From: Candidatus Aminicenantes bacterium
GTDB lineage: Bacteria > Acidobacteriota > Aminicenantia > UBA2199
Assembly: GCA_030639305.1 (NCBI GenBank)
Contig: DAOWCY010000002.1
Coordinates: forward strand, 14,974-78,973
Reading direction: 5' to 3'
DNA: 64,000 nucleotides
Below, one piece after another: positions 9,590 through 54,368 of this stretch. Positions within the stretch are counted from its first letter, which is position 1. Every line of letters begins with the position of its first letter. The notes under the pieces are model-generated. The model was not told the origin of the DNA. It made no database searches and saw only the letters and a program-made list of their open reading frames with translations. The translations under genes and the position numbers were made by a program.

Positions 9590-10084
9590 TTGATTTCCCA
9601 CGGGAAAATTGTAAAAGTTCGAGGTAACAAGGGTGAGGTGGTACTGGTCACCTCCCCTGGACGGGATATATATATCCCTGGAAAAGGGGAAACTTTAACT
9701 TTAGAATCCGCAAAATATCGCAAGAGCTTTGAAATCGAATATGCCGGGAAAATAAGCGGGGCTTTAGTATTGAAATTTGTAAATGTAAATACGATAAATG
9801 AGGCATTAAAGTTAGTCGGGTATCATGTACCGGCATCCCCTGCTCCCGGGCAGAGTACCCCTGCAGGAGAGATAACCGGGTTTACCGTCCTGGATGTAAA
9901 TGGACAGAGGTGGGGGAAAATCGTAAATATCGACAGCAGTACCCTGAATAAAATCATCGAAGTCCAGGACGAAGAAAAAATCTTTTACGTACCTTTCACC
10001 GGCTCTATCGTGAAAGAGATTAATGAGGAGCAGGGAATCGTTATCATCGATCCCCCGGCCGGCTTGAAGGAATTGAACCGATGA
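9590..10084 (+). CDS. rimM: 16S rRNA processing protein RimM
   Basis: TTG start straight after the KH-protein stop. GKIVKVRGNKGEV matches the RimM N-terminal beta-barrel, and a PRC-barrel-like C-terminus follows. The operon position agrees. Confidence 0.8.
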   Translation: MISHGKIVKVRGNKGEVVLVTSPGRDIYIPGKGETLTLESAKYRKSFEIEYAGKISGALVLKFVNVNTINEALKLVGYHVPASPAPGQSTPAGEITGFTVLDVNGQRWGKIVNIDSSTLNKIIEVQDEEKIFYVPFTGSIVKEINEEQGIVIIDPPAGLKELNR

Positions 10085-11013
10085 AATTCTCGGTAGTAAC
10101 TATTTTTCCCGGGATGATAGAGAATTTCCTCCAATACGGCTTGATCTCCAAAGCCATCGAGAACAAAATAATAACCGTGAATGTATATGATCTAAGAGAA
10201 TTTTCCGGTAACAAGCACCGCAAAGTGGATGATAGACCCTTTGGCGGCGGAGCCGGTATGGTCATGACGCCCGCTCCCCTATTCACCGCAGTCGATCATA
10301 TCGAGGGGTCTGCGACCCCACCCTATGAGGGGCCTATAGATCATGTTCCCGGCCCGGTTGAGCAGAAAGAGGGATCGGGGGTTCCAGCTCCAGCCTCTGA
10401 ATATCCTGGAAAAACGGCGTCCGCGCCCTATGAGGGGCCTATAGATCATATTCCCGACCCGGTTGAGCAGACTGCGCCCCCAGCCTCTGAGAGTCCTGCG
10501 AAAGTAATTCTTTTTTCGGCCTATGCCGAATTGTTGACCCAGGAAAAAGTCAAAAGCCTATCTAAAGAAGACCATCTTATCCTGGTCTGCGGCCGTTACG
10601 AAGGCGTTGACCAGAGGTTCATAGACGAAAAAATAGACGAAGAAATATCTATCGGCGAATATGTCACCATGGGCGGAGAAGCCGCGGCGGAAGTCCTATT
10701 AGAGAGCGTCGCCCGCATGCTGCCCGGAGTGATCGGAAACCCCGAATCGGTGGAAACCGATTCCTTTTATAAAGAGGGCCAATACGGTTTCCCCCAGTAT
10801 ACCCAACCGCGGGATTATAAAGGTTTAAAAGTTCCCGAAGTACTGTTATCGGGGCATCATAAAGAAATATTAGATTGGCGAAAAAGCCCGCGGCGCGGGC
10901 GCCCTATAAGCCACTTCACGGGGGGACGGCGTCCCCACCCTCTAAGCCGCTTCGCGGCAAAAAGCGAAGAAGCCGGGGAATCCAAAACCCGCAGAGTAAT
11001 AAAGAAAACATAG
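10081..11013 (+). CDS. trmD: tRNA (guanine37-N1)-methyltransferase TrmD with an internal tandem-repeat insertion and a repeat-derived C-terminal tail
   Basis: MKFSVVTIFPGMIE, DDRPFGGGAGMVM and LVCGRYEGVDQRFID are TrmD SPOUT motifs. It is 310 aa against a typical length of about 245. The start overlaps the rimM stop. Confidence 0.85.
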   Translation: MKFSVVTIFPGMIENFLQYGLISKAIENKIITVNVYDLREFSGNKHRKVDDRPFGGGAGMVMTPAPLFTAVDHIEGSATPPYEGPIDHVPGPVEQKEGSGVPAPASEYPGKTASAPYEGPIDHIPDPVEQTAPPASESPAKVILFSAYAELLTQEKVKSLSKEDHLILVCGRYEGVDQRFIDEKIDEEISIGEYVTMGGEAAAEVLLESVARMLPGVIGNPESVETDSFYKEGQYGFPQYTQPRDYKGLKVPEVLLSGHHKEILDWRKSPRRGRPISHFTGGRRPHPLSRFAAKSEEAGESKTRRVIKKT

Positions 11014-11026
11014 AAGGAGTTAAATA

Positions 11027-12692: not shown

Positions 12693-12949
12693 AGCTATTT
12701 TTACCACGAAGGACACGAAGGGCACGAAGTCCCGTGGCACGGGAAGCCTATAAGGGGCTGCTTGTCGAACAAGGCGGCGGCCCCCGGTAGGAACCTGCAG
12801 CGCAGCTTACCAAAAGTTTTGATCAAACTTTTTTGAAGGTGCGGTGTGCCGCGGCCCCCAACTTCAATTTAATGGGGGCGTCACCCGGCAGGGACCTGCC
12901 GCGCAGCGGCTTAACGCCCCCCCACGCGAGTGGGGCCGCCGGAAGCAAG
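12693..12949. repeat. Composite intergenic repeat: module C (CCACGAAGGACACGAAGGGCACGAAG), a CCTATAAGG module and the long family-A hairpin element in reverse orientation
   Basis: Shares stretches of 20 to 100 nt with elements at 16935, 23906, 48340, 61487 and 63838. Hairpin-forming palindromes CCCCACGCGAGTGGGG and CAAAAGTTTTGATCAAACTTTT are present. Confidence 0.85.
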
Positions 12950-13172: not shown

Positions 13173-13382
13173 ATGAATTTTATGGTAAAAAAAGAGATTC
13201 ATGCAGCAGGCAAACTATTGGAAATCGAGATACCGCCGCACCTTTTAGGAAAGAATGTGGAAGTTATCATCAGGGAGAAAGAAACAAAAAAAGAAAAAAA
13301 CGAATTAGATGAATTTTTCTCCCGGTTTAATTACGATCTATCAGGTTTAGTTTTCGATAGAGCGGAGCTTCATGAGAGATAA
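13173..13382 (+). CDS. AbrB/MazE-fold antitoxin (VapB-like)
   Basis: 69 aa with the swapped-hairpin-like segment LLEIEIPPHLLGKNVEVIIRE. Its stop overlaps the start of the downstream PIN gene. Confidence 0.5.
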   Translation: MNFMVKKEIHAAGKLLEIEIPPHLLGKNVEVIIREKETKKEKNELDEFFSRFNYDLSGLVFDRAELHER

Positions 13383-13779
13383 AATATTTTTAGATTCGAA
13401 TGTCGTCATTTACTCCTTAGGAAGAGATGAAGTTAAAAAAAAGATTTCTGTAGATTTATTGAAAAATTATCCTACTATCAGCGCTCAGGTCGTTAATGAG
13501 GTAGTGAATGTTTCCCTTAAAAAGTTAAAGATGTCCAAGAATGAAGCTTTTGAAATCGGAAAGACCTTGATCCGGAGCTGCGAAGTTGTACCGGTAAATG
13601 ATAGGATTGTATTGAATGGATTTGAGATTTCGGAGAGATACCATCTTTCTTTTTGGGATAGTTTGATTATTTCCGCTGCTCTTGAAAATGATTGTTCAAT
13701 CATATATACCGAGGATTTACAGCATAATCAATTAATCGAAGATAGGTTATTAATCCGGGACCCTTATAAAGAAAAATAG
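13372..13779 (+). CDS. vapC: PIN-domain ribonuclease toxin (VapC-like)
   Basis: N-terminal IFLDSNVVIY with the conserved Asp, and a later WDSLI..YTEDLQH acidic cluster, fit the PIN fold. 135 aa. Overlaps the upstream antitoxin by 11 nt. Confidence 0.75.
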   Translation: MRDKIFLDSNVVIYSLGRDEVKKKISVDLLKNYPTISAQVVNEVVNVSLKKLKMSKNEAFEIGKTLIRSCEVVPVNDRIVLNGFEISERYHLSFWDSLIISAALENDCSIIYTEDLQHNQLIEDRLLIRDPYKEK

Positions 13780-14064: not shown

Positions 14065-16926
14065 ATGAAAAAATGCATTATATTTATCAGTTACAGTCAC
14101 GAAGACATAGGCTGGAAAGAGAAGCTTTTAGAGCACTTGAAAGTTTTGGAAAAACAAAACATCTCCGCCCTGTGGCACGACCGGGATATTAAAGATGGCG
14201 AAAAATGGCGAGAGAAGATCGAAAAAGCCATCGACAGCGCACAAGCTGTTGTGCTGCTAATTTCGCCCGCTTTTTTGAGTTCCGATTTTATCAGCAAAGT
14301 CGAAGTGCCGCGCATATTAGAACGCCAACAAGAAGAAGGACTACTCGTATTCCCGGTTATAGTCAGGCCCTGCGCCTGGAAAGAGGTCGAATGGTTGAAG
14401 GCCATGCAGTTGACTGTTAAAGAGCCCCTGGCCGGGAAGAGCGATGCCCAAATCGACGAAGAGCTGGCCGCTTTGACCGAAAGAATCGCCCGGCGTTTCA
14501 AACAGGTCAAAGGGGCGGGCGAAAAACCCGAAGACACCGCCTATCCTCCCCCACCCCCGAAGAAGGTGGATATTAGCAAACTGCCTATCACCGGGCCGGA
14601 TTTGTTCGGCAGGGAAGAGCAATTAAAAATCCTGGATAATGTTTGGGTAGACACCGGCACCCGCGTGGTAACAGTCATCGCCTGGGGCGGGATGGGCAAA
14701 ACCGCTTTAGTAAGGGGCTGGCTGAACCGCCTGTCAAAAGAGAATTATCGCGGCGCGGCAAAAGTCTACTGCTGGTCTTTCTACAGCCAGGGGGCGGCGG
14801 AGGGCAAGCAGGCGTCGGCGGAACTTTTTATACAAGAGGCGCTGGTTTGGTTCGGCGACCCGGAGCCTGATGCAGGCACGGCGGAAGAGAAAGGGCGCCG
14901 GTTGGCGGAACTGGTTCGCCGTCAAAAGACCCTGTTGATTTTAGACGGATTAGAGCCTTTGCAGTTCCCGGCCCACGAAAACATCGCCTACCCGGGCCGT
15001 TTAAAAGACCGGGGGTTTTCCGTGCTGCTGCGGCAGTTAGCCGCCGCCCAGCCGGGATTGTGTGTGATCACAAGCCGCGAGCAGGTGACCGACCTGACTC
15101 CCCAAAAGGGTTCGTCGGTGCTGGAGATGGACTTAGACCAGCTTTCGCCCGAATCCGGGGCTGAGCTGCTGATCAGCCTGGGCGTCAAAGGAGCGGCAGC
15201 CGAAACTGCCTCTTCCCCCTCTGTGCCCTCTGTGTCCTCTGTGGCTAATCTTTTTAAAAAAGAGATGTTTCGCGCCGTGGAAGAGTACGAGGGTCATGCG
15301 CTGGCCTTAACCCTGTTGGGCAATTATCTATCGGTATGCTGCGATGGCGACATACGTAAGCGGGACACCGTGCCCAGCCTCACCGGGGAGCGCAGGCAGG
15401 GGGGGCATGCCATGCGGGTGATGGCTGCTTACCGGGAGCATCTAAAAGACAGCGCCGAATTGGATATCCTTTTTATGATGGGCCTTTTCGACCGCCCGGC
15501 CCCTGCCGGGGCTATCGAGGCGTTGCGCGCGGACCCGGTTTTACCCGGCGTCACCGGCAGGCTGCAAAACCTGTCAAAAGAAGACTGGCTTTACGTTTTA
15601 GACAACCTGCGCCGCGCCCATTTGCTGGCTAAAGAGAATCCTATCAGCCCCGGCAGTTTAGACTGCCATCCCCTGGTGCGGGAGTATTTCGGCGAACAGT
15701 TGGCGCAAGAGCAGCCGGAGGGTTTCAAAGCCGCCCACCAAAGGCTCTATAATTACTACAAAGACCTGCCGGAAAAAGATTTGCCCGACACCATCCAGGA
15801 AATGGAGCCGCTATTCGCGGCTATCAGCCACGGTTGCGCCGCCGGCCTGCACCGGGAAGCATTAGATGATGTGTACTGGAAGCGGGTGTGCCGGGAAAAC
15901 GAATATTTTATTTTCAACCAACTCGGCGCTTTCGGTTCTTTCCTGTCGGCCTTATCCCATTTTTTCGATACACCCTGGACCACCCCGGCAGCCGGGCTGA
16001 AAAAAGAAGACCAAGCTCTTTTGTTAAGCTGGGCCGCCTTCGGCCTGCGCGCCGTGGGCCGATTGGCAGAAGCGGCGGAGCCTATGAAAGCAAGCCTGGA
16101 AATGGCTGGTAATGATGAAGATTGGGGAAATGCCGCCATCGCTGCCTCCAACCTGAGCGAGCTACTGCTCACTTCAGGCCGGGTGGCTGAGGCGGTGGAT
16201 TATGGCCGCCAATGCGTAAAGTACGCCGACCGCGACGAGGATAAATTTCAAAAAGAAGTTAACCGCACCACCCTGGCCGATGCGCTGCATAACGCCGGGG
16301 AAATGGAGGAGGCGGAGGCCCTATTCCGGGAAGCGGAAGAGATGCAAAAAGAGCGCCAGCCGGAGTATATCTTTCTCTACTCCCTGAAGGGCTACCGGTT
16401 TTGCGACCTGCTGTTGTCCAAAGGGGAGCGCCGGGAGGTCTTGCAGCGGGTGGAGCAAACCCTGAAATGGGTAAGCAAAACAAATTGGCTTTTAACTATC
16501 GCCTTAGATAAACTCTCTTTAGGCCGGGCTTACACGATACAGGCCGGGGAACTAAGCCGGGCCGGGAAAACCGAAGCTGCGAAAGAGAGCCGCACCCGGG
16601 CCGGGGAGTTTTTCCAACTGGCCGTGGACGGGCTGCGGGAATCCGGGAACCAGGACGACGTACCCCGCGGCCTGCTGGCGCGGGCCGGGTATTACCGGGA
16701 AAGCGGGGAGTATGAGCAAGCCTGGACCGATATGGCCGAGGCCCTGGAGATCATCGAAGCCGGGGACATGAAGCTCTTTTTGGTGGATTACCATATCGAA
16801 ACGGCCCGCCTCAGCGCCGCCCAAAACCGCCCGCAAGGAGCGGCAGAGCACCGCCAAACCGCCAAAAAACTGATCGCCGAAACCGGCTATAAACGCCGCG
16901 AAAAAGAATTAAAAGAGCTCTCGTGA
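14065..16926 (+). CDS. TIR-NB-ARC-TPR STAND NTPase (bacterial NLR-like, candidate antiphage effector)
   Basis: The start was moved to ATG 14065 (MKKCIIFISYSHED) because the tracked start lies inside a repeat. TIR domain covers aa 1-150. Walker A is VIAWGGMGKTAL, Walker B is LLILDGLEP, and GHALALTLLGNYL is a GLPL-like motif. The C-terminal 400 aa or so are TPR-like helical repeats. Confidence 0.8.
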   Translation: MKKCIIFISYSHEDIGWKEKLLEHLKVLEKQNISALWHDRDIKDGEKWREKIEKAIDSAQAVVLLISPAFLSSDFISKVEVPRILERQQEEGLLVFPVIVRPCAWKEVEWLKAMQLTVKEPLAGKSDAQIDEELAALTERIARRFKQVKGAGEKPEDTAYPPPPPKKVDISKLPITGPDLFGREEQLKILDNVWVDTGTRVVTVIAWGGMGKTALVRGWLNRLSKENYRGAAKVYCWSFYSQGAAEGKQASAELFIQEALVWFGDPEPDAGTAEEKGRRLAELVRRQKTLLILDGLEPLQFPAHENIAYPGRLKDRGFSVLLRQLAAAQPGLCVITSREQVTDLTPQKGSSVLEMDLDQLSPESGAELLISLGVKGAAAETASSPSVPSVSSVANLFKKEMFRAVEEYEGHALALTLLGNYLSVCCDGDIRKRDTVPSLTGERRQGGHAMRVMAAYREHLKDSAELDILFMMGLFDRPAPAGAIEALRADPVLPGVTGRLQNLSKEDWLYVLDNLRRAHLLAKENPISPGSLDCHPLVREYFGEQLAQEQPEGFKAAHQRLYNYYKDLPEKDLPDTIQEMEPLFAAISHGCAAGLHREALDDVYWKRVCRENEYFIFNQLGAFGSFLSALSHFFDTPWTTPAAGLKKEDQALLLSWAAFGLRAVGRLAEAAEPMKASLEMAGNDEDWGNAAIAASNLSELLLTSGRVAEAVDYGRQCVKYADRDEDKFQKEVNRTTLADALHNAGEMEEAEALFREAEEMQKERQPEYIFLYSLKGYRFCDLLLSKGERREVLQRVEQTLKWVSKTNWLLTIALDKLSLGRAYTIQAGELSRAGKTEAAKESRTRAGEFFQLAVDGLRESGNQDDVPRGLLARAGYYRESGEYEQAWTDMAEALEIIEAGDMKLFLVDYHIETARLSAAQNRPQGAAEHRQTAKKLIAETGYKRREKELKELS

Positions 16927-16934
16927 TCTCTTTA

Positions 16935-17085
16935 GGGCTATTTTTTACCACGAAGGACACGAAGGGTACGAAGGGGGACTGGCGCGCCCTACCTATAAGC
17001 CGCTTCCTTAACCTCAGCCCTTCTTGAGCTCATCCTGAGACCTCTTGAGCTCCTCCTGAGCCCTTTCTTGAGCTCCTCCTGTATC
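16935..17085. repeat. Intergenic repeat: module C plus a CCTATAAGCCGCTTCC module plus three tandem 23-bp units of CTTGAGCTCMTCCTGA
   Basis: TTTTACCACGAAGGACACGAAGGGTACGAAGG is near-identical to 12700-12730. It fills the convergent gap between the TIR-STAND gene and cutA. Confidence 0.8.
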
Positions 17086-17461: not shown

Positions 17462-18274
17462 TTATTGATCTTTTTTTTCTTCCGCTGGTTTCTCTTCCGC
17501 GGGTTTTTCTTCAGCCGGTTTTTCTTCGGTAACCTCTTCCGTAGGTTGTTGTTCCGCTGCTTCCGCTTCTTTTTTCTCCACTGATTTCTTATAATCGTCG
17601 GCAGAGTCGATCTGGATGATAATCAAACGACCGCCGATGGTTTTTTTACCCTCTCCTAACATCAATTCACTTTTTCTTAAGCAAAACACATAATCCTTTA
17701 CCTCATCATTAGCTAAGGTTACTTTCACATCGACTTTTTGATAATAGGTTTTGCCGGTAAACATATCTAAATCTTGCTTCCTGCCTGTGGACATGCCGAT
17801 GAGGGATTTTTCGCGCTCTACTGCTTTCTGCGAGGCAACTATTTTTTGGACAAGGTCGCGATATTTCTGTTTTTCCTCTTCAAAGGCTGCATCCGCTGCT
17901 TCGATTTGTTTTCTCAATTGAGCCTTTTTGCTGGCCCGCCTGGTTTCTTCCAGCTCATCATCTAGATCATCTAAATTGTCCTGCGCATCCTGGGCATTAT
18001 TGCCCTGCTCCGTTCTCTCTTTGATCAATGCCTTTAGTTTCTCTTCGAGGCCGGCAAGTTCCAGTTCTTTCTCTTCCGGCTCAGACAGGGTAACGATCTC
18101 GTATTCCTTATACTCCAGGTCTTTAGGCTCTATGGCCATCGAACCCATGGTATCTTTGTCGTCCATCTTCATGGCTACGAAGTACTTCTTAACCGTAGCT
18201 TCGCCGGGCTGCGAGCACGATGTGGTAACAATAATTAAACAAAATAACGCCAGTAAAAAAATAGATTTTTTCAT
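17462..18274 (-). CDS. Coiled-coil lipoprotein with a C-terminal (EEKPA)n repeat
   Basis: Signal peptide MKKSIFLLALFCLIIVTTSC with a lipobox-like Cys. A long charged coiled-coil region follows. The C-terminus is EEKPAEEKPAEEKPAEEKK. Confidence 0.6.
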   Translation of the reverse strand: MKKSIFLLALFCLIIVTTSCSQPGEATVKKYFVAMKMDDKDTMGSMAIEPKDLEYKEYEIVTLSEPEEKELELAGLEEKLKALIKERTEQGNNAQDAQDNLDDLDDELEETRRASKKAQLRKQIEAADAAFEEEKQKYRDLVQKIVASQKAVEREKSLIGMSTGRKQDLDMFTGKTYYQKVDVKVTLANDEVKDYVFCLRKSELMLGEGKKTIGGRLIIIQIDSADDYKKSVEKKEAEAAEQQPTEEVTEEKPAEEKPAEEKPAEEKKDQ

Positions 18275-19971: not shown

Positions 19972-20268
19972 ATGACCAAAGATGAAGTGTTGAATTTTCT
20001 GAAAGAAAAAAAAGACGAGTTAAAAGATAAATTTGACATAGAAGAAATCGGTCTCTTCGGCAGTTATTCAAGAGGAGACTATAACAAAAAAAGCGACATC
20101 GATATCGTATATGTGCTGAAAGAAGTCAATAAATTCGGCTTTTCAGAATACTTGCGATTGGAGGAATTATTATCGATGCAGTTCAAGAAAAAAATTGAAC
20201 TGATCAATTATAAATACATGAATCCCATTATAAAACATAACGCAAAAAAGGAAATCATCTATGTTTGA
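19972..20268 (+). CDS. Nucleotidyltransferase antitoxin (MNT, HepT/MNT system)
   Basis: GSYSRGDYNKKSDIDIVYV is the GSx(n)DxD minimal nucleotidyltransferase motif. 98 aa. Overlaps the downstream HepT-like gene. Confidence 0.8.
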   Translation: MTKDEVLNFLKEKKDELKDKFDIEEIGLFGSYSRGDYNKKSDIDIVYVLKEVNKFGFSEYLRLEELLSMQFKKKIELINYKYMNPIIKHNAKKEIIYV

Positions 20269-20683
20269 TAAAAAAAACCTTGTCTACGTATTGACTATCC
20301 TGGAAAGCATTGAAAAAATCATGATTTACTCCCATGGGTTTGAAAACGCTGATGATTTTTTGTGGGCCAACCAACAACTAAACTTTAACGGAACGGTAAA
20401 TCTCTTAATTGCCATTGGCGAAGAATCAAAGAAAATCGATGTTAAACTTAAAGAGGAATTTCCCGGCATCGAGTGGAAAGCAATTGCTGGGATAAGAGAC
20501 AAACTATCTCACGATTATAGAGGAATCGATCCCAATATCCTATGGAATGTTATACAAAACAAATTAAATGATCTAAAATTGACTTTGATCAAAATGCTCG
20601 ATAGAATTAATTATGACAATGAAGCATTAACCGAAGCATTAAAAACAAAGTATTACTCTCATTTAAGTTATTTAGAATCCTAA
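20261..20683 (+). CDS. HepT-like (DUF86) toxin with RX4HXY motif
   Basis: RDKLSHDY fits R-x4-H-x-Y. 140 aa. Its start overlaps the MNT stop by 8 nt, the usual genetic coupling. Confidence 0.8.
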   Translation: MFDKKNLVYVLTILESIEKIMIYSHGFENADDFLWANQQLNFNGTVNLLIAIGEESKKIDVKLKEEFPGIEWKAIAGIRDKLSHDYRGIDPNILWNVIQNKLNDLKLTLIKMLDRINYDNEALTEALKTKYYSHLSYLES

Positions 20684-22105: not shown

Positions 22106-23137
22106 TTAATCCTCCAGCGGGACTAACACAATCCTGACGAATATTTTTTTATCTTTTACTAAAACTTCCCAATCGGGAATTTTATTTATACTAACAAAAT
22201 CTCTAAACACATTATTGACCAGCACGGCTTCCCCGCTGCTGCTAATAAAAATTTGCCCCCTGGCTAAATAACCGGCCCGGTTCAATTCGAGCAATTTTTT
22301 ATCTTGCATCGAAAGAGCAGACAAAACGGCTGCTTTTAATTTCTTTCTTTTCGCCCTCTTACTGCGGCTGACGCGGTCGATAATATCATTCAAAATTAGG
22401 CGGCTATCGGACCCGGCTCTTTTAATCCTGTACAAATAAATCTTCGAGGATATGTATCTAAAAGAATATTTTTTCTTATCCACAACCTGCCGGAACTCGA
22501 GACTGCCTGCTCCCCCCACAACGCCGAAATCCAATTTTTTTTCTTGCCTCCGGCGGGTCAGAACCTTTTTGGAAAAAGGTTCCGACACCTCCAAAAACTT
22601 TTGTTTATTTCCGTCCGCCCCGGTTTTCTCTGCCTCGATGTTCCCCGGTTTTATGTCTTGCCCGGTGGAGCCTGTTTCATTACTTGCCGGGTCTCCAGGC
22701 CGAGCGCTTTCAGCAATGCCGCCGGAGTCTCTTGCCGGAGTCTCCTCCGGCTGCCGGTCACTGCCTGCTGCCGGGAGGTTTTGCTCTGCTTCGCCCGCTG
22801 CTTTTTTTTCGCCCTCTTCTCCGGTTAAACCGACGCTTTCACCCACTTTTTTTTCTATTTGTAAGCCGCTGTTTTTACCGGGCACTATAGTATTGCCGGA
22901 CTTGCCGTTATCCTCAACCAGGACGTTTATGGCGACTACCACAACAAAAACCACGATTATACCTATAATAGCAGATTTCAAAAACCGCTCCGGCACCGCG
23001 GTCTCTTCCGCCGCAGCCGCCGGCCCGGTATCATTTTTAGCGGGATAGTCGTATTCCTCACCGGCAATAACTATCCTGCCTCTATAAAGCCCTTCCTCTT
23101 CGAGAGCTTTCAGGAATGTCTCGATTCCGGCCAACAT
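22106..23137 (-). CDS. Membrane-anchored hypothetical protein with a low-complexity Gly/Glu/Pro linker
   Basis: One TM helix (IIGIIVVFVVVVAINVL), an acidic or Gly-rich linker and a basic C-terminal domain. Its stop abuts the start of the downstream gene. Confidence 0.5.
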   Translation of the reverse strand: MLAGIETFLKALEEEGLYRGRIVIAGEEYDYPAKNDTGPAAAAEETAVPERFLKSAIIGIIVVFVVVVAINVLVEDNGKSGNTIVPGKNSGLQIEKKVGESVGLTGEEGEKKAAGEAEQNLPAAGSDRQPEETPARDSGGIAESARPGDPASNETGSTGQDIKPGNIEAEKTGADGNKQKFLEVSEPFSKKVLTRRRQEKKLDFGVVGGAGSLEFRQVVDKKKYSFRYISSKIYLYRIKRAGSDSRLILNDIIDRVSRSKRAKRKKLKAAVLSALSMQDKKLLELNRAGYLARGQIFISSSGEAVLVNNVFRDFVSINKIPDWEVLVKDKKIFVRIVLVPLED

Positions 23138-24087: not shown

Positions 24088-25119
24088 TTAGTGTAATCTG
24101 TGGGCCGCTTTTTGGGGGCCGCGATTCCTTCCTGCCCCCCGGTGTAGCAGAAAGACTAACCCGCCGCACAAGGCGTAAATATACTTCATGCCTAAGTCGA
24201 TCACCTCAACTGAAAGCGATACGGCCCCGGGAAATTTCATCAAGTGGGTAAACACATGTGTGCGCACCCCGATGCCGTTAACAGAAGGCACCGTCATCAA
24301 CAGGAAAACCAACACCGGCGCTTTTAGCAGGAAATCCACCGGCTCGGGCGCCTGCCCCAACGACCGGGCGATAAGATAATAGTAAACCACCATGCTAAAT
24401 TGAAACAGCAAGCTCACACTCAGGGCCAGGAACAAGGCCCGGGGGCGACGGTAATACATAGCCACTGCCCCGTAGGCTTTCTCTAAGAAAGAATGAATTT
24501 TCACGGGCAGGAATTTTCCTAAAAACTTCAGAATACGGGGCGCCACTTTGGGATGGGCCAGGTAGGCCAGCAGGACAAACCCGCCCAATATAGCCAGCAC
24601 AAAGCCCCAGGTGAGTTCTTCCTGGCCGCTCCGGCGGGAGAATTTTATAATCAAGGCAGCAGCGGCGATCAGGCCCAAAGCCATCATCCCGGTCAGGCGT
24701 TCGATAATCACCACCATCATGGAAGTGCCGGTATCGCCGGTTAATTTTTTACTTTCGATAACCCGCACCGCATCGCCGCCGATAGTGGAAGGCAGGATCG
24801 TATTAAAAAAAGCAGCCATAAAATAGTATTTGAAAAGCTGGCTGAATTTTGCATTTACTCCCTGGGGTTTCAGCAGGATTTTCCAGCGCAGGCTGATCAG
24901 GCTGAAACCTACCGTATGCAGCAGGAAAGCGGGGATCAGCCATATCAAAGAAGCGCCGGAAAAAGCGCGGCCGAATTTTTGCAGGGCCGCGCCTACGCTG
25001 CCTTCGTCTATAGAGAGAGTGTATAAGAAATAGCCGATCAGGCCTACGCTTACCGCGACGCGCAGCAGCAGTAACAGGATTTTCTTTTTTGATTTTTTGG
25101 AATTATTACCATTCATCAA
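24088..25119 (-). CDS. Lysylphosphatidylglycerol-synthase-TM-like / UPF0104 family flippase-like membrane protein
   Basis: 343 aa with 8 TM helices. The motif STIGGDAVRV is conserved in the LPG_synthase_TM (UPF0104) family. Confidence 0.65.
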   Translation of the reverse strand: MMNGNNSKKSKKKILLLLLRVAVSVGLIGYFLYTLSIDEGSVGAALQKFGRAFSGASLIWLIPAFLLHTVGFSLISLRWKILLKPQGVNAKFSQLFKYYFMAAFFNTILPSTIGGDAVRVIESKKLTGDTGTSMMVVIIERLTGMMALGLIAAAALIIKFSRRSGQEELTWGFVLAILGGFVLLAYLAHPKVAPRILKFLGKFLPVKIHSFLEKAYGAVAMYYRRPRALFLALSVSLLFQFSMVVYYYLIARSLGQAPEPVDFLLKAPVLVFLLMTVPSVNGIGVRTHVFTHLMKFPGAVSLSVEVIDLGMKYIYALCGGLVFLLHRGAGRNRGPQKAAHRLH

Positions 25120-25664: not shown

Positions 25665-25750
25665 AATAAATTTAGTACCTCCTTTTCCAGTATAAGATTA
25701 CTAAATAACACAAATAGTATAAAATTTCAAGATATTCGGCAAAAAAACAA

Positions 25751-25834
25751 ACTTTTGGTCAGAGCCTGGTTGGAGATACTGTTCCCAGGCCCCTCATAGG
25801 TTGGAGTGCGCCGACCCCCGCCGTCCGCTCGACG
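25751..25834 (+). repeat. Family-D repeat (..TTCCCAGGCCCCTCATAGGTTGGAGTGCGCCG..)
   Basis: Shares a core of about 60 nt with 35735-35826 and 37832-37927, all in the same orientation. It sits directly upstream of ispG. Confidence 0.75.
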
Positions 25835-27002: not shown

Positions 27003-27165
27003 GCAAAGTTTTTTTGGCGGTACAAGTTCTCCTCTCCCTTAACCCCTCCCCACGTGAAGGGGTCTGCAGTAGGGTTAACAAATTTTTTCTTGGAGGAGCA
27101 GGGTTGTTACTCGAAAGTCCCTTATAGGCTGCCCGTGCCGCGGGGCCGCGGGGCGGGGCTGCCCT
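27003..27165. repeat. Repeat-related GC-rich hairpin segment (CAGCCTATAAGG and CCCCACGTGAAGGGG modules) at the 3' end of the FG-GAP gene
   Basis: The CCTATAAGG module is shared with 12750, 23925 and 48465. It overlaps the last 15 codons or so of the minus-strand gene 27122-30157. Confidence 0.4.
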
Positions 27166-33799: not shown

Positions 33800-35440
33800 T
33801 TATTTATCTTTTTGAGATTTTTTTTCTAATTTTACGATTCTTTTGTTAAGAGAGTCGATGGTTTCCTGCTGCTTTTGCACCACTTTGGTTAACACAGCCA
33901 CTACGTCCATGGGACTCATCCCTTTTCTATCTTTACTGGCAACCAGGTCGGGAACATCTTCAGCGATGAAACCCACATGGCCGTCGCTGTCATCTTTCTT
34001 ATATTTAAACTTAACGGGAGTGAGACCTTCTAAAGTGTTCAGAGCTTCACCGGCATCGAGGTTTTCGATGTCTTTTTTATATTCCCGGCTGGAACCATTA
34101 ATCCAGTCGCCGCCGTCGCAATAAGCGCCGCCTTTTAAATGTAGTAAGTGCGAAACAGTCCCCATATCAATACCGATGCCAACCTGTCCATCAGCGGTGT
34201 CGGCGTTTAACCTCATTACCACCAAGCTATTATTTACCAGGAAATTGAGCGGTTCGGGTCCCCTGGAGCCGATCTGCACTGCGTTGCCGGCAGCAGCGAA
34301 TTTGCCCGAGATGCCGGAGGAGGTATTTTCGACCACCATGAGGCTATTGCCAGCTTCTACTACATGCAATTCGAATAGCGGGTCATCGGTGCCTATACCG
34401 ACGTTACCGTCAGAATCGATGTCGATAGAGCTGCTGGGAGCCCCGGGCCTGATCCTGAAAGGCAGCGTGGAGCCGTTGGTGGCGTCGCGGATAAAAAAGT
34501 TGGCTTCGTTACCGGCTACGTCCCAGGTCTGGGGAGTGAACCCGGATGAACCGTCCTGCTCTAAACGCAGGGTGGGTGTGTTGCCGTCTTTCACGTGGAG
34601 CTGCACCACGGGAGTGGAGGTGCCTAAACCGACCCGGCCGCCGTCGTCTACGTAGAGAGAGCTGGTGGGCGCTCCGGCTTCGACTAAAAAGGGCTTCCTA
34701 CCGCCGTCTATATCTTCTATAGCGAAATAGTTGCCCCCGCCGTTGGCGCTGTCGTTGACCGTAATTTGCCAATCGCGAGAGGGAAAAGAAGAGGTGCTGC
34801 TGGTATCCACGAACCTGATACGCAGGTTGTTCTCTTTTAACCTGATGGTATCGAAACCGAAAGACTCACCGTTTACGCAGTCCATACCGACGCAGATGCT
34901 GCCGTCTACGATAAGGTCGTCGAGGATGACCTGGTCATCCGGTAGTTCGGGGCCGTCGTCGCCCTGCACTATCGCCGGGTTTGTGTTCCGGTTCCCCTGT
35001 TTGCCGGGTTCCAGGAAACCACCGGTGACAATGGAGCCGCCGCGGACGGTAAAAGCGCCGGACTGCACTAAAGGTTCCGTGGTGCGCCTGCTATCTCTCA
35101 AACCGGGATTGCCGTCGATTTCGCCCGCTTTGCGTAACTTTACTTCATTGGGGACAAGGCGCAGTTCATAATTATAGGAGCCGTCAACGATACTGCCTTT
35201 GTTTTCCGATAAATCGAAATAGGCGCTGCCGCCGGATTCGAAGGTTTTGCTAAACACCGTGCCGTCGGGCCGGGAAACAGTCAGGAATATTTTGCCGCCG
35301 GACACTTTAGGCAGCCAATGGATGCCGTTGGAACCGACGCTCACTTCGGCCACCCGGTTGGATTCCGCCGCAGCCGAAACAGCAAAGATCAAGACTACTG
35401 CAGCACACATTACAAAAACTTTTCTTGTTTTTCTACTCAT
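33800..35440 (-). CDS. Secreted beta-helical fibre-like protein with C-terminal Peptidase_S74 intramolecular-chaperone domain (paralog 1)
   Basis: Start at ATG 35440 (MSRKTRKVFVMCAAVVLIFAVSAAA) with a GGAGG RBS. C-terminus SSREYKKDIENL...LTPVKFKYK...GHVGFIAEDVPDLV matches the autoproteolytic chaperone of endosialidase and tail-fibre proteins. Confidence 0.7.
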   Translation of the reverse strand: MSRKTRKVFVMCAAVVLIFAVSAAAESNRVAEVSVGSNGIHWLPKVSGGKIFLTVSRPDGTVFSKTFESGGSAYFDLSENKGSIVDGSYNYELRLVPNEVKLRKAGEIDGNPGLRDSRRTTEPLVQSGAFTVRGGSIVTGGFLEPGKQGNRNTNPAIVQGDDGPELPDDQVILDDLIVDGSICVGMDCVNGESFGFDTIRLKENNLRIRFVDTSSTSSFPSRDWQITVNDSANGGGNYFAIEDIDGGRKPFLVEAGAPTSSLYVDDGGRVGLGTSTPVVQLHVKDGNTPTLRLEQDGSSGFTPQTWDVAGNEANFFIRDATNGSTLPFRIRPGAPSSSIDIDSDGNVGIGTDDPLFELHVVEAGNSLMVVENTSSGISGKFAAAGNAVQIGSRGPEPLNFLVNNSLVVMRLNADTADGQVGIGIDMGTVSHLLHLKGGAYCDGGDWINGSSREYKKDIENLDAGEALNTLEGLTPVKFKYKKDDSDGHVGFIAEDVPDLVASKDRKGMSPMDVVAVLTKVVQKQQETIDSLNKRIVKLEKKSQKDK

Positions 35441-35734
35441 TTTTACCTCCTGCAGCCCATCGAACATAACCAATTTTGTTACATTGACGACTACTACTTT
35501 ATTTTTTAAAAATTTCTCAGTTTACAAAAAACACCGTCATGAACGCTAAAGACACCGTCTTTACAAATTTCTTTCATTTTTTAGGATGCAAACCGCACCC
35601 ATATAAATGCCCCACAATACCAGATTTGTTTCATTATAGATTATAAATATAACCAACAATGAAACAAATGTCAATAGGAAAAATGAAAAAAAATGTTTCC
35701 AGGTGTTTTTTTTTAGCTGCGTTTTACTAATACT

Positions 35735-35826
35735 TCGTGAAAGTTAAACAAACTTTTCGGTCAACGTGGTCGGGGATGTGTTTCCCAGGTCCCTCATAAG
35801 GTGCGGACGCCGTCTGCGTCTTGAAA
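35735..35826 (+). repeat. Family-D repeat copy
   Basis: GTGAAAGTTAAACAAACTTTTCGGTCAACGTGGTCGGGGATGTGTTTCCCAGGTCCCTCATAAGGTGCGGACGCCG is homologous to 37832-37927 and 25751-25834. It lies on the plus strand between two minus-strand genes. Confidence 0.75.
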
Positions 35827-35949
35827 TAAGGATTTAGTTATTCTTTCCCCTTAATATACAGCTTTTGATAGTATAAAAAAAAAGCGGGAAAAGCTTGCCC
35901 GGACAACATGTCCGGGCAGACCTTTACCCGCTTTTTCAACGGTTTGTTT

Positions 35950-37554
35950 TTATTTATCTGATTGGGACTTCTTCACAAGTTCGTTAACTTTTTTATTCAG
36001 ATCGGTGATTGTTTTCTGCTGTTCTTTAACAACCCTGGTTAAAACAGCTACGACATCCATCGGACTCATCCCTTTTCTATTTTTAGTGGCTACCAGGTCG
36101 GGAACATCTTCAGCGATGAAACCTACATGACCGTCGCTTTCATCTCTCTTATATTTGAATTTAACGGGAGTGAGCGCTTCTAAAGTGTCTATCGCTTCAG
36201 CGGCCTCGAGATTTTCGATATCTTTTTTATATTCCCGGCTGGAAGCATCTGTCCAGGTTGAACCGTCGGAAAAGGCGCCGCCGCTTAACTCGAGCAGGTG
36301 AGTGGGATTCGTTTGGCCGATGCCCACCTGGCTGTCGGTATCGATAGTCAGCACTTTGGTGGAGTTATTGACGACAAAATGTACTTTGTCGTTGGTCGCG
36401 GAACCGAATTGCGCCGCGTTTGAACCGGCGGAAATCTTAGCTGCGGCGCCGCCGGTGTTCTCGATACCGAAGGTGGCTGTAGTCGATCTCGATACATGCA
36501 AATCGTAAGTGGGGGCCCAGGTGCCTACACCTACTTTATTATCCGCCCTGAGAGTGAGAACGCTGCTGGGCGCCCCGGGCTGGATCCTGAAAGGCAGCGT
36601 GGAACCGTTGGTCACGTCGCGGATGAAGAAGTTGGTTTCATTTCCGGCTGCGTCCCAGCTCTGGGGGGCGAACCCGGACGAACCGTTCTGCTCTAAACGA
36701 AGAGTAGGAGTGTTGCCGCTGACGGCGTGGAGGTCCACCACGGGAGTGGAGGTGCCGAATCCCACCCGGCCGCCGTCATCGACATACAGGGAGTGGGTAG
36801 GGGCTCCAGCCTCGATGGAAAAAGTCCTCCTGCCGGCAGTCGAATCTTCTATGCCGAAATAAGATGCCCCGCCATTGGCGCTGTCGTTTATAACGATACG
36901 CCAATCGTTGCTGGGGAAGGACGCGGAGGAACTGGTGTCATCGAAGTGAACGCGCAGGTTATTTTCCTTTAACCTGAGGGTATCGAAACCGAAACTCTCG
37001 CCGTTCACACAGTCGAAACCGATACAGGCGCTGCCGTCTACGATGAGGTCGTCGAGAAAAACCTGGTCATCGGGTGATTCGGGGCTGCCGCCTAACGAAT
37101 TATAGGCCGGAGGATTTTTCGCTTCCATGGAGCCGCCGGTAACGATGGTCCCATGGTGAACTCTAAAAGCGCCGGACTGCACTAAGGCTTCCCGACTTTG
37201 GACGCTGCTGCCTTCCGCTCCGAAACTAACAGATGTATCGCCCTCTTTCCGCACCTGTTTACTAAAAGGGGTGACTACAAGTTCAAAGTTATAAGTACCG
37301 TCGCCGCTGTTTCCTTTGTTTTGCGAAAGATCGAAATAGGGAGTGCTCCCGGCTTCGAAGACTTTACGAAAAACCGTTCCGTCGGGCCTGGAAACAGTCA
37401 GGGTAATTTTTCCGTAAGATACTTGGGGCAGCCAACTAACTCCATAGGCGCCGACATTTACTTCGGCCACCCGGTTGGATTCCGCTGTACCTGGAAAAGC
37501 AAAGACCAACAAAAACGCTGCAAACATTAAAAAAGATTTTCTTATATTTTTCAT
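35950..37554 (-). CDS. Secreted fibre-like protein with C-terminal Peptidase_S74 intramolecular-chaperone domain (paralog 2)
   Basis: About 60% identical to paralog 1 across N-terminal, central (DDLIVDGSxCxGxDCVNGESFGFDTLRLKENNLR) and C-terminal (SSREYKKDIENLEA...GHVGFIAEDVPDLV) regions. Signal peptide present. Confidence 0.7.
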   Translation of the reverse strand: MKNIRKSFLMFAAFLLVFAFPGTAESNRVAEVNVGAYGVSWLPQVSYGKITLTVSRPDGTVFRKVFEAGSTPYFDLSQNKGNSGDGTYNFELVVTPFSKQVRKEGDTSVSFGAEGSSVQSREALVQSGAFRVHHGTIVTGGSMEAKNPPAYNSLGGSPESPDDQVFLDDLIVDGSACIGFDCVNGESFGFDTLRLKENNLRVHFDDTSSSASFPSNDWRIVINDSANGGASYFGIEDSTAGRRTFSIEAGAPTHSLYVDDGGRVGFGTSTPVVDLHAVSGNTPTLRLEQNGSSGFAPQSWDAAGNETNFFIRDVTNGSTLPFRIQPGAPSSVLTLRADNKVGVGTWAPTYDLHVSRSTTATFGIENTGGAAAKISAGSNAAQFGSATNDKVHFVVNNSTKVLTIDTDSQVGIGQTNPTHLLELSGGAFSDGSTWTDASSREYKKDIENLEAAEAIDTLEALTPVKFKYKRDESDGHVGFIAEDVPDLVATKNRKGMSPMDVVAVLTRVVKEQQKTITDLNKKVNELVKKSQSDK

Positions 37555-37831: not shown

Positions 37832-37927
37832 CGTGAAAGTTTGCTAAAAAAACAAGCTTTTGGGTCAACGTGGTCGAAGATGCTTTCCCCAGGCCCCTCA
37901 TGGGCTGCGGGCACCGCCCGCTTCTTG
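37832..37927 (+). repeat. Family-D repeat copy overlapping the annotated 5' end of the TPR/FG-GAP gene
   Basis: TTTGGGTCAACGTGGTCGAAGATGCTTTCCCCAGGCCCCTCATGGGCTGCGGGCACCGCCCG is homologous to 35735 and 25751. Confidence 0.75.
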
Positions 37928-40900
37928 TTTATAGGTTCCTCAGCGAAAGGTGAAAAAGAACTCGATGCGGCGGCAGTTGCCGCCAACAACCGTGGCGCTG
38001 CCCTGATGGGGCAATTCGATTACGAGGCAGCGAGGCAGGTATTCGAGAAACTGGCGCGAAAGTATCCCCGCAATTGGGACATACAGGTCAACCTGGCTAT
38101 CGCGACTCTTAACCGTCAGAAAGAGGGCGATGAGAAAACAGCCCTAAGCCTGTTGGAAAAGGTACTGAAAAACGACGGGGAGCACCTGCGCGCCCGCTAT
38201 TGCTGCGGTTTGTTGGAGCTGCATGGGGGGCGACCGGATAAAGCCCTCGGTTATCTCCAGGCCGTTTTAAAAACAGACCCGGGAGACGCGGAAGCGATCT
38301 ATTTCACCGGCAATACGCTTACGCAGCTTTCTCGCCATAAAGAGGCGCTCGGCTTTTTTAATCGTACTATTGCCGCCGATCCTTATATCCGCAGCGCTTA
38401 TTACGGCAAAGTCATGGCCCTGAGACAATTAGGGAGAACGGACGAAGCCTATGCCGTGATGGAGGAATTTCAGCGTCTGAAACATAATCCCCGCACCCGC
38501 CTTATAGAGTTCAAGTATACCAGGATGGGCCGCAAGGCAGAGGCGCTGGCCGTCGATTTTCCGCATCCGCCGGCAGCGAAAAAACCTGTCGGCCCGCTGT
38601 TTAACCCGGTAGAAAGGATTGCCGGTAATAAAGAAATAAAATGGCGGCGCACCGCGGCACAGGGCGCACCGGCGCGTCCCGGTATCACCATATGTGACAT
38701 TAACGGCGACGGCAGCCCTGATATATTTATTCCCGGGGCAATCGAAGTGCCTGCCGGGATCGGTAATGCCCTACTGCTTGGGAATCCCGCCGGGAAGTAT
38801 ACCATAGACACGGGGCATCCCCTGGCCGGCGTTACCGCGGTCAATGCCGCTCTCTGGGGCGATGTAAACAACGACGGTTTCGTTGACGTCTACCTCTGCC
38901 GTCATGGAGCAAACCGGCTTTTTTACCGGGATGCGACGGGCAGTTGGCAGGACGTCACCGCTGAAACCCAAACCGCCAATGGCAGTTTCGACACTGTGGA
39001 CGGCGCTTTAATCGACGCCGACCACGACGGCGACTTAGATATTTTCCCGGTAAACGCTAACGGCCCCAATGAGCTCCTCAACAACAACCGCGACGGCACT
39101 TTCCGGCCCCTGGCCGCCAAATACGGCCTGGGCGGTAACGGCGCTCCCTCTAAGTCGATCGTCGTTACCGACTTAGATGCCGACCGTGATGCGGATTTGA
39201 TTATTATTAACGAACGCCCGCCCCACGAAGTATACGAAAACCGGCTCCTCTGGGAATACCGGCCGGCAAAAGGATTCAAGGCATTCACCGCGGCGGATAT
39301 CGGCGCAGCCGCGGCCGGGGATGTGGACGCCGACGGCAGTATAGAGATATATACCCTGGATACGAAAGGGATTCTTTATCGCTGGCAGCCGAAGACAGGC
39401 AATACCTGGGCAGGAGAAGCCCTAAACAAAGAAACCGGACCTAAAAAAACCGGTACGGAACCCCCGTGGCAGCCCCGCTTAGCGCTGTTAGATGCGGATG
39501 GTGACGGTGTGCTGGACGTCTTCTTGTCCGGCCCTAACGGGCTGTGGGCGGCCTCCTTTACCGGCGCCGGTCTGGAACCGCTTTTTTTGACAGCGGGGCA
39601 AAAAGAGAAAAACAAAGCCGCTGCCTGGGCTGTTTTCCGCTCTTCTAAGGGGCCTGTTCTATTCGGCTGGTCGCCGGGCGAGCCTCCTTTTTTCAGGCCG
39701 CCCGGGCCCGGCAGGTATTCCTTTGCTGCTTTGGAACTATCAGGTAAAGAGAACCCGGATTCCCAGTGGCGTTCCAATGCATCGGGGATCGGCACACGAT
39801 TGTCGGTGCGTGTGGATTCGCGCTGGACGGTGTTGGATACGTTCCGCAGCCACTCAGGTCCGGGCCAGGGGCTGCAGCCCGTAGTAGTAGGGCTGCGCGG
39901 GGCAAAGCGTATCGACTTCGTGACCATCGACTGGCCTGACGGAGTGCTGCAAACCGAACTTAGCCTGAAAGCAGGAAAAACCCATCGTATTTTTGAGACC
40001 CAGCGCCAGTTATCCAGTTGTCCCGTGCTCTTTGCCTGGAACGGGAAAGAATTTGCTTTTGTCAGCGATATACTTGGCGTAGGCGGAATAGGCTATGCGT
40101 TGGCGCCCGGGGAATACTCCGAACCGCGGCCCTGGGAACGTTTTTTGCTGCCCCCCGGCCTAATGCAGCCGCGCAGTGGACGCTTGCTAATCAAGCTGAT
40201 GGAACCCATGGAAGAAGTGGCCTATATAGATGCAGTACGGTTGAAAGCATACGATTTGCCGCCCGGTTGGTCTATGGCTTTAGATGAGCGAATGGGAATC
40301 AGCCCGCCTCTGCCCACGGGACGCTCTATTTTCTATCGAAACATATCGCTACCCCTGGCGGTGACAAACGAGCGCGGCGCGGATGTGACCGCGGCTGTAA
40401 TAAAGCGGGATTTGCATGCAGCGCCTTTAGGAAAATTAGACCGGCGTTTCATCGGTAGGCTCGAGCAGGATCACGTGCTGACTATTACTTTTCCCCGGTC
40501 ATTAGATAGCTGGTCCGGTCAGGCTGTCCTGCTGGTTGACGGTTGGGTAGAGTACCCTTATTCGCAGACCAATTTTGCCGCCTGGCAGGCCGGGGCGGAT
40601 TACCGCGCTCCTACGATCGAAGTGCGCCGGCCTGACGGTTCATGGATACCGGTCCTGGAACAATTCGGTTACCCGGCGGGTATGCCGCGCCGGATGGCCG
40701 TGCCGCTGCCCCCTCTGCCGGGGGGCGTTCGCCAAATTCGCCTCAGCACCAACCAGGAAATCTACTGGGACCGGCTGGCAGTTGTTTTTGCCGAAACCTG
40801 TCCCCGGGTGGAAGATCGAGAATTGGTTTTAGCTTCGGCACGACTGGAACAGGTTGGATTTCCGCAGCGAACAGATGGGGAGCAGCGCCTTCCTTTTTAT

Positions 40901-41399: not shown

Positions 41400-41480
41400 C
41401 TCATTAAAAGTTTTTGGAAGTCCAGAAACCTTTTTTCAAAAAGGTTTTTGGTCGCCGAAGGCAATATTTGAGGTTTTGAA
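41400..41480. repeat. Intergenic repeat copy (AAAAGTTTTTGGAAG / GGTCGCCGAAGGCAA modules)
   Basis: Matches 13985-14060 and 19838-19880. Confidence 0.65.
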
Positions 41481-46877: not shown

Positions 46878-46960
46878 CGGTAGGGTCCTGCCTTCGGCGA
46901 CCCTGCCGCGAAGCGGCTAATTGGCCGGGGACGCCGTCCCCCTGCGAAGCGGCTAAAAGG
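46878..46960. repeat. Intergenic repeat (GGTCCTGCCTTCGGCGACCCTGCCGCGAAGCGGCTAA and GGGGACGCCGTCCCC hairpin modules)
   Basis: The modules recur at 54229-54368 and inside trmD (10900-10990). Confidence 0.75.
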
Positions 46961-54228: not shown

Positions 54229-54368
54229 TTACCTTCGGCGACCCTGCCGGGGGCCAAACTTTTGTAAAAGTTTGATCAAAACTTTTTATAATTTGAAAGC
54301 GAGAAGCGCTCACGCACTGCCCTGCCGCGAAGCGGCTCATAGCCCCCCCACGCGAGTGGGGTAATTTC
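54229..54368. repeat. Composite family-A repeat (short core plus a GCGAAGCGGCTCATAGCCCCCCCACGCGAGTGGGG tail)
   Basis: Between the start of the cytochrome gene and the end of the RM methyltransferase gene. It generates the spurious ORF 54206-54406. Confidence 0.85.

Follow-up and report, generated by a model that had tools for sequence, protein, structure and literature searches.

How does an essential enzyme come to carry long segments that none of its aligned relatives possesses? The question is raised by trmD, a gene within a 64,000-nt stretch of a Candidatus Aminicenantes genome (assembly GCA_030639305.1, contig DAOWCY010000002.1, positions 14,974 to 78,973; this whole stretch is hereafter called the window). 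A first-pass annotation, made from the letters of the window, had proposed that about the last 35 codons of trmD are encoded by a short repeat that also occurs between genes, and that the same modules lie within several other proteins. We found two in-frame blocks of repeat origin in trmD, a third in the gene of a substrate-binding protein (SBP), and a repeat unit that closes the gene of an FG-GAP/ASPIC protein. In our judgement these are probably copies of a lineage-specific repeat family similar to repetitive extragenic palindromes (REPs) and MITEs (transposable elements of the miniature inverted-repeat type), a family that keeps copies within genes only if these preserve the reading frame, lack stops and sit in tolerant loops or termini. 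Coordinates are collected in Table 1.

Table 1. Positions of repeat-derived segments and related features in the window (ORF, open reading frame)
Feature	Position	Strand	Description
trmD ORF	10081-11013	+	310 aa; core shared with orthologues, and two in-frame insertions of repeat origin
trmD internal insertion	10305-10494 (approx.)	+	60-63 codons, residues ~76-138; two tandem copies of element B
trmD tail insertion	10888-10965	+	78 nt = 26 codons (SPRRGRPISHFTGGRRPHPLSRFAAK), one direct-repeat copy counted in
AAAAAGC 7-nt direct repeat, left copy	10881-10887	+	right copy 10959-10965, exactly 78 nt apart; resembles a target-site duplication
Native trmD end	10966-11013	+	EEAGESKTRRVIKKT followed by TAG; no repeat match (BLAST against the window)
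Closest intergenic copy of the trmD tail modules	46904-46942	-	downstream of the SBP gene
Intergenic copy	63706-63759	-	architecture as in the trmD tail (hairpin-ACCCTATGAGCC-hairpin-hairpin); A-rich flanks
Element B, intergenic copies	25739-25829 (-), 35740-35828, 37844-37934		repeat families D14, D20; nhmmer E 1e-23 to 3e-27
SBP in-frame insertion	47457-47516	-	60 nt, 20 codons; peptide PHSRGGAISGSAAGSAFDFQ
SBP 5' module	48201-48230	-	other family, D17 (AAAAAAGGGGACAGGCCGGAAA); copies at 48441, 48521, 48608; encodes NFSGLSPFL if an upstream start is used
FG-GAP/ASPIC protein end	27122-27163	-	module encodes the last 12 residues (SPAPRPRGTGSL) and the TAA stop; GC 0.81
Candidate composite module in hypothetical ORF 22106-23137	22539-22610	-	in frame …KQKFLEVSEPFSKKVLTRRRQEKK…; matches 41406-41446 (41 nt, 85%, E 9e-4) and other copies

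Two insertions in trmD

The TrmD protein encoded in the window proved, in a protein database comparison, to be 100% identical to that of a Candidatus Aminicenantes metagenome-assembled genome (MAG). Its homology to Pfam PF01746 and to TrmD entries in the PDB is restricted to residues 1-75 and 139 to about 272. Orthologues, about 120 among the matches listed, measure 210-237 residues and mostly 216-221; those from Aminicenantes have 216-221. Alignment with orthologues, by which the first-pass annotation had proposed to delimit the inserted residues, yielded two extra blocks in TrmD (19 orthologues) and one in the SBP (15 orthologues). The two TrmD blocks, one at residues ~76-138 and the other after WRK, are absent from 19 of the 19 orthologues, and their subtraction leaves a protein of about 221 residues. 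All residues invariant among these orthologues are retained. The internal block, which is the larger, had been overlooked in the first-pass annotation.

A syntenic relative (L013; ENA ERZ27241900) shares the gene order ffh-rpsP-KH-rimM-trmD-FTCD with the window. Its TrmD has 221 residues at 76% identity, and both insertion sites are empty in it. The gene that follows trmD is formiminotransferase-cyclodeaminase (FTCD), not rplS, in the window and in this relative alike. The spacer between the two genes is 13 nt in the window (11014-11026) versus 330 nt in the relative (L013 3667-3996), where it is full of modules of the same family, among them CCCTGCCGGAGGCCAAAC, AAAAAGTTTGTTCAAAACTTTTG and a hairpin with 7-nt arms about a 1-nt loop (7-1-7; E down to 2e-5). 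A terminator and promoter scan around trmD gave nothing exceeding expectation.

Three GC hairpins in a chain, with linkers of the CCCTATAAG type, make up the tail insertion. The first two, GCCCGCG-G-CGCGGGC at 10886-10900 and GGGGACG-G-CGTCCCC at 10922-10936, have the 7-1-7 form, and the third, GCCGC-TTC-GCGGC at 10946-10958, is 5-3-5; all three are still perfect. The sequence (G/A)CCCT(A/C)TAAGCC follows each of the first two, giving the linkers GCCCTATAAGCC and ACCCTCTAAGCC. Because these lie 36 nt apart, the TAA triplets of both fall out of frame in trmD. The element is open in three of its six reading frames, and its GC content is 0.71 versus 0.47 in the rest of the gene.

The repeat strings that had been quoted from this region are present at 10901-10958, and the reported likeness to intergenic modules near 46900 and 54330 is borne out. 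BLAST of 10880-10970 against the window paired 10921-10959 with 46904-46942 on the opposite strand (39 nt, 87%, E ~2e-5) and returned shorter matches at 54323-54337 (15/15 nt) and 27121-27144 (24 nt). BLAST within the window also paired 63730-63759 with 10883-10912 (30 nt, 87%). The string GGGGACGGCGTCCCC has its sole window sites at 10922 and 46927-46941, where 0.16 would be expected, and the CTCTAAGCCGCTTCGCGGC-type module has seven, where the expectation is 0.01. When the tail peptide was compared by phmmer with 1.8 billion representatives, the matches were two spurious, repetitive proteins, and no related peptides emerged. A query of concatenated module peptides had no matches in a set of 5.8 billion proteins, but it also missed the source proteins, probably through bias filtering, and so carries no information.

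Repeat DNA is thus present at the end of trmD, as had been claimed, but it accounts for only 24-26 codons (residues 269-294) and not for about 35. Its right-hand boundary is uncertain by up to seven codons. The last nine residues, KTRRVIKKT, align with the tail KHRAVSSKKS of the relative (P0005/L013), whose protein ends in WRKKNQKHRAVSSKKS and a stop. Judged from this alignment, the tail repeat is an in-frame insertion within a native tail, 17 codons before the native stop, and not the source of the whole tail. We also considered that the ancestral tail might lie in the +1 frame (KKRRSRG…, ending at TAATG) but dropped the idea, since it is the in-frame KTRRVIKKT that aligns with KHRAVSSKKS.

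Two copies of AAAAAGC, a 7-nt direct repeat, flank the insertion. A 7-mer repeated in this way on either side would arise by chance with a probability of about 0.025 if any register is allowed and 0.004 if the register must be the same. When the 78 nt are excised, the protein ends in …DWRKSEEAGESKTRRVIKKT and a stop, with TGGCGAAAAAGC joined to GAAGAAGCC at the empty-site junction. The empty site reconstructed in this way, TGGCGAAAAAGCGAAGAAGCC, resembles the L013 DNA TGGAGAAAGAAGAACC.

The internal insertion derives from another repeat of the window, here called element B, and comprises two diverged copies of about 105 and about 90 nt, with 46 nt that are 96% identical between them. Each copy opens with a unit made of a hairpin and CCCTATGAG. 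A hidden Markov model (HMM) built from the three intergenic copies of element B matched trmD at 10414-10467 (E 3.9e-7) and at 10304-10369 (E 1.8e-6) in nhmmer. The block is a gap in all of the aligned orthologues and in the DNA of L013 and of L015. It sits in the loop that precedes the KVILFSAYA strand, and one orthologue (P0008) carries a few extra residues in the same loop. The insertion is open over 189 nt although four of its six frames contain stops. In an AlphaFold2 (AF2) model the confidence measure pLDDT falls below 50 at TrmD residues 82-131 and in the tail.

Repeats of this kind might have caused a chimeric join or a frameshift, with the real trmD stopping near WRK…; for the tail, a frameshift had been raised as an alternative from the start. 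Population contigs do break at repeat clusters, as where NCBI contig L001 ends at window position 12833 within a cluster of modules. The DNA of the trmD region, however, is identical (100% over 1.8-5.8 kb) in four assemblies, namely the NCBI MAG GCA_023135565.1, two from ENA and one from Logan, and the 310-aa ORF is the same in all of them. These assemblies represent at least three samples and pipelines, the two from ENA having come from different samples. Because the four share 100% identical DNA, an assembler-specific chimera or frameshift at trmD is very unlikely. The flanks of each insert are moreover collinear with orthologues and in the same frame, and no stop lies upstream. To an assembly or sequencing artefact, then, we give almost no credence.

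Only slightly more credible is the proposal that trmD is a decaying pseudogene whose work is done by a second, intact copy. Two insertions within one essential gene are unusual. Against this, the ORF is intact, the family-invariant residues are kept and the operon context is conserved: trmD overlaps rimM by 4 nt, and a Shine-Dalgarno sequence for the next gene is in place. Both insertions, furthermore, occupy positions that vary among orthologues, as the extra residues of P0008 illustrate.

Repeat copies in other genes

The ORF 46977-48560 (minus strand) encodes an SBP with a Peripla_BP_6 domain, and the gene proper extends from 46977 to about 48242. A module in frame inside this gene had been reported by the first-pass annotation, and comparison with orthologues confirms it as a 20-residue insertion, absent from 15 of 15. 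These orthologues have a single DFQ at the site versus two in the window protein, and the conserved core is intact. The inserted DNA matches intergenic copies at 12895-12935 (90%, E 4e-8) and 54321-54362 (E 5e-7). It is flanked by direct repeats of 9 nt, TTGAAAGTC (47448-47456) and TTGAAAATC (47508-47516), that agree at eight of nine positions. AF2 confidence dips at model residues 268-286, within a domain otherwise at pLDDT 76-92.

The same modules were also said to occupy the signal-peptide region of the SBP. A module does lie there, but it belongs to a different family, and its translation would require a start at GTG 48242 or ATG 48314, which is plausible. It abuts the position of the start codon in orthologues, whose N-termini read VKAFAAGFI. 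The NCBI annotation of the SBP (P0121, 379 aa) starts at an internal Met, which drops the signal peptide. Farther upstream, the roughly 110 stop-free codons of 48231-48560 (minus strand) are stacked modules that are almost certainly not coding and that inflate the ORF.

For the FG-GAP/ASPIC protein, the claim that a module supplies its last residues is upheld, with 12 codons and the stop lying inside the module. The stop falls within the CCTATAAGG linker of a hairpin unit, and the UnbV_ASPIC domain ends about 17 residues before it. BLAST matches this module to that of the trmD tail. Less remains of the proposed N-terminal extensions of other ORFs, which are mostly artefacts of ORF calling over stop-free stacks of modules. 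That of the TIR-STAND protein is almost certainly untranslated, the real start probably being ATG 14065 (MKKCIIFISYSHED) and not the listed 14002. The N-terminal extension of the TPR/FG-GAP ORF overlaps a copy of element B.

The candidate module in the hypothetical ORF 22106-23137 (Table 1) may instead be intergenic, between two genes. Two further gene ends have a similar appearance. In a TPR protein (43219-44946, plus strand) the last eight codons, …RPCRVPAK and the stop, look module-derived; they lie over the hairpin TGCCGG-GTG-CCGGCA, and the stop is in AAAATAGCC of repeat family D12. In an LPG-synthase-like protein (24088-25119, minus strand) the same holds for the last 15 or so codons, which are GC-rich and read …RGAGRNRGPQKAAHRLH before the stop. 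Stop-free, GC-rich modules inflate ORFs and shift called starts and stops, and with about 110 spurious codons in the SBP they constitute an annotation hazard. Repeat-derived inserts can likewise mislead orthology and domain annotation in MAGs.

The repeat unit and its probable entry into genes

The basic unit of the family spans about 29 nt and consists of a GC hairpin with a variable 7-bp stem and a 1-nt loop, followed by the conserved linker (A/G)CCCT(A/C)T(A/G)AG. Twelve units align ungapped as N7-G-N7' and then ANCCTATRAGSS. In this alignment 95% of cells pair, compensatory changes occur at six of the seven stem pairs and the covariation score was reached by none of 500 shuffles, a result that is partly circular because the units were picked as palindromes. 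Throughout the window, units and other small palindromes form chains whose order is mosaic, and modules often begin within a few nt of stop codons. GC hairpins with stems of at least 7 bp number 13 in 9.3 kb of intergenic DNA versus seven in about 55 kb of ORFs, which makes them about 11 times denser between genes; two of the seven are the trmD element. The inserts measure 78, 60 and 180-189 nt and are compositionally foreign (GC 0.60-0.81 versus 0.47-0.54).

Comparisons beyond the window gave few leads. Rfam and tRNA scans of the window yielded no matches, and the 20-mer TTAAGCCGCTGCGCGGCAGG was found at two loci in GTDB species genomes and six in JGI metagenomes, all chance-like and without other modules. 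A DNA-uptake sequence was rejected as a candidate, given that the stems differ in sequence yet still pair. Integron attC sites were rejected as well: some linkers (GTTAAGC) fit GTTRRRY, but the window contains neither a cassette array nor an integron integrase, and its genes are large, of housekeeping type and oriented both ways. Contigs from unrelated organisms (L008, L010 and L011, of rumen Bacteroidales type, and L009) have analogous chains of small GC hairpins with variable stems, such as GCCGC-TGC-GCGGC. Their linkers are fixed and AT-rich, AGTTAA in one lineage and GGATTA in another. These analogous chains suggest that chained hairpin arrays arise repeatedly.

How might such modules have come to lie within genes? 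We envisage that a short, non-coding mosaic repeat family colonised an Aminicenantes genome, with most copies settling just beyond gene ends. A 78-nt chain would have inserted ahead of the trmD stop, element B would have entered a surface loop of TrmD, where it would now stand as two tandem copies, and a 60-nt chain would have entered a loop of the SBP. Another unit would have overrun the end of the FG-GAP gene and would now supply its stop codon. At least half of the reading frames of such GC-rich elements would be open. Copies with a length divisible by three, situated in loops, termini or signal-peptide n-regions, would probably be near-neutral and survive, and others would be purged; selection would act only as a filter. 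The outcome would be proteins with disordered peptide inserts rich in Arg, Pro, Gly and Ser.

On this account the inserts are presumably translated and tolerated, and TrmD, an essential methyltransferase with a knotted fold, seems to accommodate some 90 additional residues, divided between two sites. Peptides spanning the inserts or junctions of TrmD and the SBP are ILDWRKSPR, FAAKSEEAGESK, the PYEGPIDH repeats and LLDFQPHSR. The first-pass annotation had argued from the kept frame that such insertions alter proteins without inactivating them. The modules are indeed in frame and the conserved cores of TrmD and the SBP are intact, but that the altered proteins still function is a suggestion drawn from their conserved motifs only.

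Could the extra segments instead be functional additions retained by selection, such as an Arg-rich tail that aids tRNA binding or an SBP loop with a new role? The 26-residue peptide of the trmD tail is basic, with six Arg, one Lys, two His and no acidic residues, and native orthologue tails are also strongly basic (KKNQKRRRT). The persistence of perfect hairpins in the tail, and of an internal insert that stays open despite the stops in its other frames, could be read in the same sense. Such a composition, however, is directly what translation of GC-rich palindromes yields. Unrelated proteins contain the same modules, most copies of which are intergenic, and no orthologue needs the segments. 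Only one sequence exists, hence there is no sign of conservation. We therefore regard exaptation as improbable.

The manner of insertion is a separate matter. It may have been transposition-like, with a duplication of 7-9 nt of the target. The direct repeats at the two genic copies for which empty sites can be reconstructed differ in length, being 7 nt and exact in trmD and 9 nt with eight matches in the SBP gene. By inspection, the two ends of the trmD element have no more than GCC(C)GCG in common, and those of the SBP element are unrelated. Alternatively, modules could have been copied from another locus, by template switching that hairpins induce during replication or by repair through microhomology, at sites having 7-9 nt in common with the ends of the element. 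The flanks of the SBP insert resemble the ends of a tandemly arranged, related intergenic unit at 60540-60640, neither terminal inverted repeats nor a transposase was seen in the window, and the modules stand in shuffled mosaic order, all of which would suit copying. Yet the exact duplication of 7 nt of native trmD sequence fits staggered-cut transposition equally well, and a conserved linker beside hairpins that vary in sequence while keeping their structure resembles the recognition sites of hairpin-specific transposases. Copying is a possibility to be taken seriously, though on balance we doubt it.

Several results weigh against a mobile repeat family tolerated within genes. The direct repeats could be element ends or microhomology and not target duplications, because the 60540-60640 copy has the same AATCAA-type flanks as the SBP insert. 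Among about 40 ORFs of the window, none had a Pfam match to a Y1 transposase or REP-associated tyrosine transposase (RAYT), and inspection of the elements revealed no terminal inverted repeats. Shuffled sequences are predicted to fold as stably as the RNA of the tail element (z = -0.5). In the databases searched there was no closer relative, above 77% identity, and no empty-site allele. Finally, overall confidence in the AF2 models is low (mean pLDDT 60 and 52), and they show only that the inserts are low-confidence loops.

Known palindromic repeats and other features of the window

The first-pass annotation held that REP-like elements have rarely been shown to extend or alter proteins. This gives too little weight to the published precedents, Rickettsia palindromic elements (RPEs) and intragenic REPs (PMC10969869, PMC3733652). 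For R. conorii, 44 genic insertions are given in a review that cites Ogata (2000, 2002) (PMC10969869). REPs of the GTAG/CGTC type within ORFs have been catalogued: a dimer encodes 20-30 aa and a cluster 43-82 aa, and stop codons are often furnished by the ends of REPs (Di Nocera et al., 2013, PMC3733652). In-frame fusions of MITEs are on record for ERIC (Delihas, 2007) and for Anabaena and Coxiella elements, as outlined in the same review (PMC10969869).

The closest parallel is with RPEs as the review describes them. They too are small palindromic repeats that occur between genes and in frame in unrelated housekeeping genes, at positions compatible with the fold, and in that account, as here, a dedicated transposase is not known. 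In-frame insertion at permissive sites, a trait of RPEs, is found here twice in trmD, in the SBP and at the FG-GAP tail, with low pLDDT at the inserts. RPEs differ in being about 100-150 bp long, in encoding a conserved family peptide and in belonging to an AT-rich, obligately intracellular alphaproteobacterium, again by the review's description. The units in the window are about 29 nt with variable stems and are chained into mosaics of 60-190 nt, in free-living Aminicenantes.

The resemblance to REPs lies in hairpins of 20-40 nt with variable stems and a conserved unpaired tag, located mainly outside genes near gene ends, in a mosaic like that of bacterial interspersed mosaic elements (BIMEs). 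As with REPs, some copies lie within ORFs and element ends may supply a stop codon. Unlike GTAG/CGTC REPs, the flank here is CCCT(A/C)T(A/G)AG, and in none of 28 hairpins does GTAG or CGTC stand on the relevant side at a distance of 6 nt or less; one has a chance CTAC. The loop is 1 nt versus 2-20 or 4-5 nt in REPs, the units run head to tail versus head-to-head dimers, and direct repeats flank two copies here. With MITEs the elements share non-autonomy, a size below 300 bp, short direct-repeat flanks and, presumably, occasional translation within host proteins. A MITE is, however, one long palindrome bounded by terminal inverted repeats, whereas the elements here are chains of independent small hairpins; neither such repeats nor a parent insertion sequence was identified.

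We found no literature in which such repeats are tied to Aminicenantes. Both the phenomenon and the explanation that probably accounts for it are already established; what is new is the lineage, the repeat family with its different tag and chained architecture, and the double insertion in an essential gene. Selfish palindromes inside genes, for which Rickettsia and some proteobacteria rich in REPs are the main known cases, are in this way extended to an uncultured free-living phylum. A bolder proposal would make the 29-nt unit, with its 7-1-7 hairpin of free sequence and its CCCTATRAG tag, a third, uncatalogued REP-like superfamily active in Aminicenantes. It would be moved by a hairpin-specific enzyme, would duplicate an A-rich target of 7-9 nt and would repeatedly remodel the loops and termini of proteins, an essential tRNA-modification enzyme among them, with some inserts (such as the Arg-rich TrmD tail) co-opted. 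We think this proposal rather unlikely.

Other features of the window lie apart from the repeat family. The genes at 33800-35473 and 35950-37554 (both minus strand) are tandem paralogues from a duplication of about 2.1 kb with 73-87% DNA identity; each product has a C-terminal Peptidase_S74 (endosialidase chaperone) domain and is tail-fibre-like. Two adjacent Eco57I/MmeI-type N6-methylase or restriction-modification genes at 54407-59027 (minus strand) have a GC content of 0.38-0.41, unlike their surroundings. The TIR-STAND protein (14065-16926, plus strand) combines TIR, AAA_16/NACHT and TPR domains, and toxin-like genes stand near it, one encoding a PIN-domain protein (13372-13779) and the other a HepT-like protein (20261-20683). 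Downstream of cutA, short tandem repeats of the CTTGAGCTCCTCCTGAG type occupy 16990-17085, and the neighbouring ORF 17462-18274 (minus strand) ends in EKPAEE peptide repeats. The motif GCCTCCGGCGG has 12 sites in the window, for example at 41247, 49992, 59208, 61489 and 63840. Its reverse complement, CCGCCGGAGGC, contains the perfect Shine-Dalgarno sequence GGAGG, and some copies of the motif lie 15-20 nt upstream of likely start codons, as at the gene that extends from 48649 to about 49975.

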